Assembly (NCBI RefSeq): GCF_003334355.1
Contig: NZ_QOWP01000048.1
From: Escherichia coli
GTDB taxonomy: Bacteria > Pseudomonadota > Gammaproteobacteria > Enterobacterales > Enterobacteriaceae
DNA length: 19,380 nt
Reading direction: 5' to 3' (one strand)
The position numbers and the translations under genes were made by a program. Below the pieces are notes generated by a model. It was not told where the DNA came from. It saw nothing but the letters and a program-made list of their open reading frames with translations, and made no database searches. This document shows, piece after piece, positions 4,935-6,113 of this stretch (the first letter of the stretch is position 1; the number at the start of each line of letters is the position of its first letter).

Positions 4935-5188
4935 AAGAGTATCTGTTTTTATTTCACTCCACGGTCGGCGTCATACAAACCCGCAAGGCGTTGCAGGCAG
5001 CGGGCATGACTTTTCGCGTCAGCGATATTCCCCGTGATTTACGCGGCGGCTGCGGGTTATGCATTTGGCTGACCTGTCCGCCTGGCGAGGAAATTCAATG
5101 GGTGATCCCTGGGCATACGGAATCAGTTTATTGTCAGCAGGATGGTGGCTGGCGCTGCATTGCACATTACGGGATTTCTCCGCGTTAA
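4931..5188 (+). CDS. Small DUF3343-like (putative Se/S-carrier-like) protein, 85 aa, translationally coupled to yjiL
   Basis: ATG at 4931 overlaps the yjiL stop (ATGA). Codon usage is typical E. coli (ctg, ggc, cgc rich). [43 protein letters not shown] resembles the DUF3343 pattern as I recall it; also contains a CPPG motif. Confidence 0.6.
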
Positions 5189-5252
5189 GGATTCATTAAG
5201 ATCGCTACGTATACTTCTCGATATCTTATTGATTTGCCTTAAAGGGATTACC

Positions 5253-6113
5253 GTGACAAAAAGTATTTCGTTAAGTAAACGCATCTTCGTTATTGTGATT
5301 CTTTTTGTCATTGTGGCAGTGTGTACTTTCTTCGTGCAATCTTGCGCCCGTAAAAGCAATCATGCAGCATCATTTCAGAATTACCACGCCACCATTGACG
5401 GCAAAGAAATTGCAGGCATAACGAATAATATCTCTTCGCTGACCTGGTCGGCACAAAGCAATACTCTTTTTAGCACTATCAACAAACCTGCCGCCATTGT
5501 TGAAATGACCACCAATGGCGATTTGATCCGCACAATTCCTCTGGATTTTGTTAAGGATCTCGAGACGATCGAATACATTGGCGATAATCAGTTTGTCATT
5601 AGCGATGAGCGCGATTATGCCATTTATGTGATTTCACTGACCCCAAACTCGGAAGTAAAAATCCTCAAAAAAATAAAAATCCCGCTGCAGGAATCCCCAA
5701 CCAATTGCGGTTTTGAAGGATTGGCCTATTCTCGCCAGGATCACACTTTCTGGTTTTTTAAAGAGAAAAACCCGATTGAGGTCTACAAAGTTAACGGGCT
5801 GTTAAGTAGCAATGAATTGCACATCAGCAAAGACAAGGCACTACAACGGCAATTTACTTTAGATGATGTGTCCGGCGCAGAATTTAACCAACAAAAAAAT
5901 ACGCTTCTGGTGCTGTCTCATGAATCTCGCGCACTCCAGGAAGTAACGCTGGCTGGCGAGGTTATAGGTGAAATGTCACTAACCAAAGGCAGTCGAGGTT
6001 TGTCGCATAACATCAAACAGGCCGAAGGGGTTGCGATGGATGCCTCAGGTAATATTTATATCGTTAGCGAACCAAATCGTTTTTATCGCTTTACCCCTCA
6101 ATCATCGCATTAA
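5253..6113 (+). CDS. yjiK: SdiA-regulated-family (predicted beta-propeller) membrane-anchored protein YjiK (286 aa)
   Basis: ORF 5142-6113; GTG at 5253 preceded by AAAGGGA (5-nt spacer) gives 286 aa with an N-terminal signal anchor ([23 protein letters not shown]). The ATG at 5142 has no SD and overlaps the upstream ORF. Gene is visibly AT-rich compared with its neighbours. Confidence 0.75.

Follow-up and report, generated by a model that had tools for sequence, protein, structure and literature searches.

A GTG-started beta-propeller gene, yjiK of Escherichia coli, with a probable conserved promoter of the activator type

Results

The yjiK locus and its translation start

We analysed a 19,380-nucleotide (nt) stretch of Escherichia coli DNA (assembly GCF_003334355.1, contig NZ_QOWP01000048.1; hereafter the window), focusing on yjiK, a gene whose start codon, control and origin had been the subject of an original prediction made from the letters of the DNA. 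The map of open reading frames (ORFs), together with a megablast search of positions 4900-6200 against complete E. coli genomes, identified the region as mdtM-yjiN-yjiML-ytiA-yjiK-yjiJ; the query matched in 5391 of the 5426 genomes, with at least 80% of its length covered in 4731. Relative to K-12, the window is reverse-complemented, and a window coordinate w corresponds to position 4,568,856 minus w in NC_000913.3. Public databases already contain the gene with its correct start, together with its family and structure, and in this respect yjiK is an ordinary annotated gene; the new element of this analysis is the conserved promoter between its two candidate starts (Table 1).

Table 1. Features of the yjiK region (window coordinates)
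Feature	Position	Strand	Remarks
Spurious 37-codon N-terminal extension	5142..5252	+	Non-coding in the yjiK frame; comprises the ytiA 3' end, the yjiK promoter and the 5' untranslated region (UTR)
Direct repeat GTTAAG-GATTC-ATTAAG	5184..5200	+	Core TTAAG-N6-TTAAG (5185-5200) in the -35 position
-10-like hexamer TATACT	5210..5215	+	9 nt downstream of the repeat
Shine-Dalgarno-like AAAGGGA	5241..5247	+	5 nt before GTG 5253; read from the sequence
yjiK coding sequence	5253..6113	+	GTG start, 286 codons plus TAA, 861 nt
Predicted signal peptide ending in lipobox V-Q-S-C	5253..5345	+	Cys31 codon 5343-5345; lipoprotein pattern
PF06977 / five-bladed beta-propeller domain	5361..6095	+	Residues 37-281 of the 286-residue protein

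Both of the starts that had been proposed are present in a single plus-strand ORF (5142-6113), which encodes 323 residues from ATG 5142 and contains an in-frame GTG at 5253. The upstream ATG had been described as lacking a Shine-Dalgarno sequence and as overlapping the preceding gene out of frame, and we found both statements to be accurate: only an AGG abuts the codon, which arises from the ytiA codons GAT-GGT (Asp-Gly), and the ytiA ORF (4931..5188) overlaps the longer yjiK frame by 47 nt. The preference given to GTG 5253, which has a ribosome-binding motif and gives a 286-residue product, is shared by annotation and orthologues. In a strain that is 100% identical here, the coding sequence called by the prokaryotic genome annotation pipeline (PGAP) equals window 5253-6113, and the K-12 RefSeq entry (b4333, NP_418753.3) has the same GTG start and 861 nt. 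In cryptic Escherichia clades, Citrobacter and Superficieibacter the orthologous proteins have 280-295 residues and all start at the aligned position, each with a short tail rich in K and R and then a hydrophobic segment at the N-terminus; in two divergent alleles (L018 and L019, from E. coli E69 and Escherichia sp. MOD1-EC7003) ATG takes the place of GTG.

The 323-residue form initiated at ATG 5142 is the longest ORF and is widely predicted by the gene callers of ENA assemblies (P0008, 4338 member sequences). Its extension stays open within the main E. coli allele class, in the great majority of the E. coli that carry this class, although this is unremarkable for 37 codons, since the same would be expected in random sequence with a frequency of (61/64)^37, or ~0.17; the 60-mer at 5215-5274 is identical in 4686 of the 4745 E. 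coli genomes carrying it. Outside this class the extension is interrupted or loses its ATG: C. amalonaticus and C. rodentium have a stop in the upstream frame at 12-15 nt from the start, a divergent E. coli allele (L002) has one at 75 nt, and the upstream ATG is missing from E. whittamii. The frame is also stopped 12 nt before the start in E. coli SCPM-O-B-8794 (L017), a single example with no exact match in the 5426 complete genomes and therefore a rare one that offers no population-wide argument. Considering further that ATG 5142 has no usable ribosome-binding site and is a by-product of ytiA codons, that the extension holds the conserved promoter described below, that the lipobox cysteine falls at residue 68 of the longer form, where the export signal pattern fails, and that curated annotations choose GTG 5253, we regard the 323-residue form as an extremely improbable product. 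Public annotation has already decided the matter in favour of GTG 5253.

Rare ytiA::yjiK fusions of 393 residues also occur in Logan assemblies (P0002-P0004); in these, a 1-nt deletion in a CCC run (window ~5109-5111) puts ytiA into the long yjiK frame. Errors of assembly, or else rare frameshift mutants, are their probable source.

A probable conserved promoter between the two candidate starts

The DNA upstream of yjiK orthologues was aligned for 12 non-redundant lineages, which included three E. coli/Escherichia allele classes, C. rodentium, C. sedlakii, two types of C. amalonaticus, an uncultured Enterobacteriaceae genome, two Superficieibacter species and Intestinirhabdus alba. Conservation across the lineages was confined to TTAAG-N6-TTAAG-aT, a fixed gap of 9 nt and a TATA.T-type hexamer; no conserved column was found in the 30 nt upstream of this footprint and one in the 45 nt downstream. 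The -10 position is occupied by TATACT, TATAAT, TAATAC or GATAAT, with the 9-nt spacing kept in all aligned orthologues. The repeat precedes yjiK in 14 of 15 loci of a genome scan, the distant Leminorella locus being the only one from which it is missing, and additionally in L002, L005, L007 and L009. Within the 19.4-kb window, TTAAK-N6-TTAAK occurs once (0.14 expected). The ytiA stop codon TAA (5186-5188) sits inside the first TTAAG half-site, as it does in C. amalonaticus.

Because no acceptable -35 element lies at 17±1 nt from the -10-like hexamer, the promoter looks activator-dependent, which would also account for the generic sigma-70 scan of 4700-6400 having reported no promoter upstream of yjiK. 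A site for the RpoD holoenzyme was mapped at low resolution to the yjiL-yjiK spacer by systematic evolution of ligands by exponential enrichment (PMC3946193). The predicted transcription start near 5222, ~31 nt before the GTG codon, would leave a 5' UTR of about that length and would place ATG 5142 outside the transcript. Two results weigh against an independent promoter: Cappable-seq supplements hold no entry for its position, and no terminator was found at 5189-5252 between ytiA and yjiK, where read-through from ytiA is possible. Taken together, the confined and evenly spaced footprint makes it very probable that a conserved promoter of the activator type lies between the two candidate starts.

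Within the predicted 5' UTR, a TTGATTT motif (window 5216-5240, cttaTTGATTTg) recurs in C. amalonaticus and I. alba; folding of the predicted UTR gave no notable structure (z = 0.39).

YjiK as an exported beta-propeller

The assignment of the yjiK product to the SdiA-regulated family was borne out by a full-length hidden Markov model match to Pfam PF06977 'SdiA-regulated' (E=6.5e-95, score 317.5, model positions 2-249 of 249), beside which a weak Phytase-like Pfam match was seen; the NCBIfam scan assigned neither YjiK nor YtiA to any family. YjiK matched PDB 3QQZ, the C-terminal domain (residues 34-286) of CFT073 YjiK, at 3.6e-166 with essentially complete identity, and thus has the beta-propeller fold of this PF06977 member. 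In agreement, the AlphaFold model (predicted local distance difference test score 84.6) has an N-terminal helix (residues 7-32) that leads through a disordered linker into 21 strands, equivalent to about five four-stranded blades, and a Foldseek search of PDB returned, after 3QQZ, only generic NHL and other propellers.

The N-terminus was tested for a lipobox with the PROSITE lipoprotein pattern, coded as {DERK}(6)-[LIVMFWSTAG](2)-[LIVMFYSTAGCQ]-[AGS]-C with the cysteine at residues 15-35 and K or R among the first seven residues. The 286-residue form fits this pattern exactly (Cys31, K3) and the 323-residue form does not, in line with the earlier reading of the N-terminus that follows GTG 5253 as an export signal. 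YjiK is also counted among the predicted lipoproteins of E. coli (PMC7139219), and its paralogue SrgB is likewise called a putative lipoprotein (PMC12086679). Conservation weighs on the other side: most orthologues from Citrobacter and Superficieibacter have no lipobox cysteine and show A-x-A-like sites (for example ANA-E and GAMA-D), a Gln at lipobox position -2 is unusual, and 13 of 90 full-length orthologues pass the pattern. Since these 13 alone do so, lipidation would not be family-wide and may be lineage-specific, while export appears to be the conserved feature. The same observations could mean that YjiK is no lipoprotein and is either fixed in the inner membrane by a signal anchor or cleaved by signal peptidase I to a soluble protein of the periplasm; in view of the exact fit in E. 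coli and the two published lipoprotein predictions, we consider this rather unlikely for the E. coli protein.

A gene called 'yjiK_2' appears as a candidate receptor in a paper on a Salmonella phage; the basis is one spontaneous mutant and a Prokka-style gene name, and it serves as a lead only.

Candidate regulators of the yjiK promoter

Both copies of the repeat keep their 3' G, which makes the element a direct repeat with 11-bp periodicity, as expected for a tandemly bound winged-helix response regulator and not for a LuxR-type dimer on a palindrome. The consensus for PmrA/BasR is (C/T)TTAA(G/T)-N5-(C/T)TTAA(G/T), that is, YTTAAK-N5-YTTAAK (PMC10927774, PMC10729948, PMC3973317). The K-12 boxes of arnB (CTTAAGGTTAAGTTAAT), eptA, waaH and pmrR each lie 10 nt upstream of a -10-like hexamer, and the K-12 qseB promoter (CTTAAC-AACTT-CTTAAG, 9 nt, TAAAAT) shares the 9-nt geometry of yjiK, in which the box likewise replaces the -35 element. 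The yjiK repeat agrees with the consensus at 10 of 12 core positions on the plus strand and at 11 of 12 on the minus strand, where it reads CTTAAT-GAATC-CTTAAC, alongside a weak score with a position weight matrix (PWM); the UBA5654 orthologue has TTTAAG-AATAA-TTTAAG, a perfect match to the consensus. On these grounds BasR/PmrA or QseB would be our candidate for the activator of yjiK, an assignment that we make tentatively and with somewhat less than even confidence. The repeat was also compared with the consensus sequences of ArcA, PhoP, CpxR and RcsAB and with the lux box; the invariant bases and the 11-bp period fit none of these.

Several observations speak against this assignment. With a PWM built from six known sites, which themselves score 19-24 bits, the yjiK repeat reaches 9.6-10.6 bits, a value only in the top ~1e-4 of 17-mers, which roughly a thousand sites per genome would share and which therefore does not discriminate. 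Position 1 of the half-sites is G or A and not C or T, the orientation of the repeat is ambiguous, and the -10 hexamer is 9 nt away, where the four BasR promoters have a distance of 10 nt. YjiK was undetected in a ppk/BasR proteome in which ArnB and EptA were detected. No open-access main text connects yjiK with BasR/PmrA, neither the paper on QseBC-PmrAB of enteropathogenic E. coli nor that on YbfA/BasSR has an entry for yjiK, and a literature search on b4333 returned nothing relevant.

The low score, the non-consensus first positions and the missing protein under BasR-inducing conditions could be read as signs that TTAAG-N6-TTAAG is real and serves another regulator, or that it is bound by a repressor or a nucleoid protein; AT-rich genes such as yjiK are typical of loci silenced by H-NS. 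To our knowledge, however, the combination of a TTAA core with 11-bp periodicity is found among E. coli response-regulator motifs in the PmrA/QseB type only, the geometry relative to the -10 hexamer corresponds to that of the arnB, pmrR, waaH and qseB promoters, and perfect consensus half-sites are present in some orthologues. We therefore judge a different regulator to be unlikely, albeit an alternative that deserves real weight, and retain BasR/PmrA or QseB as the tentative candidate.

The family name and control by SdiA

The original prediction had added that the family is named for regulation by SdiA and that a gene responsive to N-acyl homoserine lactones (AHLs) might therefore sit in this cluster. 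The origin of the name holds, although it traces to a plasmid gene and carries no meaning for the control of yjiK. Genes of the YjiK family on Salmonella virulence plasmids are ~37% identical to it (tblastn, residues 44-281). On pSLT-type plasmids the family gene lies between srgA (DsbA-family) and rck, downstream of pefI and upstream of srgC (AraC-family), and this gene order identifies it as SrgB. Apart from the pefI-srgC operon, no Salmonella locus is known to be under direct control of SdiA, the SdiA-dependent control covers the operon as a whole, and SrgB is described as an uncharacterised putative lipoprotein (Schwieters and Ahmer 2025 review, PMC12086679). Downstream of srgC and in the opposite orientation, pSLT has a second ORF annotated as 'SdiA-regulated domain-containing protein' (98 residues, L004 6501-6797, minus strand), which probably represents a fragment of a gene.

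That yjiK itself is controlled by SdiA and responds to AHLs, as its family name would have it, draws on its PF06977 product, on the position of its paralogue SrgB in a directly SdiA-regulated operon and on a similar idea raised for rorf1, a gene of the locus of enterocyte effacement (LEE), when the domain name was pointed out in its product rOrf1 (Pallen et al. 2005, PMC1084347). Regulation is a property of a promoter, however, and not of a protein family: SrgB is internal to its operon, and the partial copy of pefI-srgC on the S. Typhi chromosome is not under sdiA control (PMC12086679). The E. coli SdiA regulon as reviewed comprises gad, ler/LEE, flagellar genes, uvrY, rmf and fepE, and yjiK is not listed (PMC12086679); among open-access E. 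coli papers naming yjiK, none concerns its regulation by SdiA. A search for the proposed SdiA box (AAAAG-N8-GAAAA, up to two mismatches) found no site in 4900-5300. The motif is itself regarded as unreliable (PMC12086679), and it proved non-specific in the whole window, with 36 sites against 25 expected. The conserved element of the yjiK promoter has the form of a direct repeat and not that of a lux-box-type palindrome. AHL control of yjiK is thus very improbable, and the proposed AHL-responsive gene is left unsupported, resting on a family name that comes from a plasmid paralogue: the 'SdiA-regulated' label is inherited from SrgB and is silent on the regulation of yjiK.

Genomic context and composition

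The gene order in the window is mdtM-yjiN-yjiM-yjiL-ytiA-yjiK-yjiJ-kptA(-)-yjiH-yjiG-iadA-hypT, followed by uxuRBA(-) and gntP; an Rfam scan of the whole window gave no matches. The observation that yjiK is more AT-rich than its flanks was readily reproduced: its G+C content (GC) is 42.6% (44.6% at third codon positions, GC3), against 50.8-56.3% (GC3 51-65%) in eleven neighbouring genes. The foreign origin that had been suggested on this ground must be qualified. AT-richness is consistent with it, whereas recent acquisition is not supported, since the yjiK genes of Escherichia, Citrobacter, Superficieibacter and Intestinirhabdus share this locus and this promoter and have a GC below that of their flanks in nearly all cases; any horizontal acquisition would accordingly appear to be ancient, and a recent one unlikely. 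The gene is followed by yjiJ in Escherichia and Citrobacter and not in Superficieibacter or UBA5654. It is retained, together with the same promoter, in Escherichia clades that have no yjiM-yjiL-ytiA and in C. rodentium, in which the upstream gene is divergent; because gene and promoter are kept where those genes are absent, yjiK is independent of the yjiML-ytiA cluster. The PF06977/YjiK family as a whole is mobile, with members on plasmids and in the LEE; tblastn of plasmids found YjiK-family genes on those of Salmonella, Pseudomonas and E. coli.

The ytiA-yjiK junction (window 5189-5252) is a variable spot in E. coli, and ~660 genomes have no window-type allele. One alternative junction (L002 5299-9295) contains a gene for a 700-residue pentapeptide-repeat protein and IS2, followed by an 85%-identical yjiK allele; in another (L003 3960-5087), an IS1-associated deletion has left the last 87 nt of yjiK.

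Inside yjiK, in gene orientation and ~770 nt upstream of yjiJ, lies ACGGCAAAGAAATTGCA (window 5398-5414, plus strand), which is the sigma-54 binding site IS54 found in K-12 by chromatin immunoprecipitation sequencing (Bonocora et al. 2015, PMC4591121). A second direct repeat, TTGTTA-ttaac-TTGTTA (window 6136-6152; TGTTA-N6-TGTTA with an 11-bp period), is located between yjiK and yjiJ, 30-45 nt upstream of the yjiJ start ATG 6181; its conservation extends over E. coli alleles, C. amalonaticus, C. rodentium and C. sedlakii, and it resembles an ArcA box. This repeat suggests that yjiJ may have a regulated promoter of its own.

Further downstream, window 11750-13250 is strongly AT-rich (GC down to 27.6% at 12001-12500) and is flanked by a minus-strand ORF of 133 residues ending at 11872 and an ORF of 192 residues at 12646-13224.

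Discussion

On balance, and with moderate confidence, we favour an account in which yjiK encodes a GTG-started, exported propeller lipoprotein and is expressed from its own promoter of the response-regulator type. Translation from GTG 5253 would yield a 286-residue precursor whose first ~30 residues act as a Sec-type export signal. In Escherichia this signal would end in the lipobox, with Cys31 and an Ala at +2, so that the mature product is most likely a periplasmic lipoprotein anchored in the outer membrane; the remainder of YjiK is the five-bladed PF06977 propeller seen in PDB 3QQZ. The promoter would lie inside the supposed N-terminal extension, with TATACT as its -10 hexamer and TTAAG-N6-TTAAG in the -35 position, a layout that would suit activation by a tandemly bound response regulator of the OmpR/PhoB family, BasR/PmrA or its paralogue QseB being the best candidates.

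A more speculative step, to which we give less credence than to the choice of regulator itself, is that yjiK may be an unrecognised member of the BasR/PmrA-QseB envelope-remodelling regulon whose propeller acts on the envelope under Fe3+, mild acid or polymyxin-type stress. If so, the only 'quorum sensing' link of the family would run via QseB and not via SdiA. The yjiK box could have been missed by earlier intergenic motif scans because the 323-residue start, with which the gene was presumably annotated at an earlier time, puts the box inside the coding sequence.

The name 'SdiA-regulated domain-containing protein' stands in thousands of annotations, offers no evidence of AHL responsiveness and is traced here to one plasmid paralogue. 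A conserved promoter of the activator type could give a first physiological context, that of envelope stress signalling, to a structurally solved family whose members include genes of the Salmonella virulence plasmid and of the LEE.

Comparison with known systems

The yjiK gene of the window is an allelic variant of K-12 yjiK (b4333, NP_418753.3): it is the same gene with the same start and length, and 18 of 861 nt differ. At the level of structure, the bacterial (plant-type) glutaminyl cyclases PDB 3MBR and 3NOK show 12-13% identity to YjiK, a resemblance of fold only. The PF06977 domain is shared with rOrf1 of the LEE (PMC1084347), which is located in a pathogenicity island, and with SrgB, which is ~37% identical to YjiK and likewise a putative lipoprotein. 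SrgB, however, is plasmid-borne, has a GC of 60% and is internal to a six-gene operon with an SdiA-dependent promoter, whereas yjiK is chromosomal, has a GC of 42.6% and is preceded by a promoter of its own, in which the cis-element is a different one. That promoter resembles those of arnB, eptA, waaH, pmrR and qseB in having a repeat of TTAA-core hexamers with a 5-nt spacer in the place of the -35 element, 9-10 nt from the -10 hexamer; it differs from them in that the canonical boxes read CTTAAG or CTTAAT while those of yjiK read GTTAAG and ATTAAG, and with the PWM the yjiK repeat falls 9-14 bits short of the six known sites.

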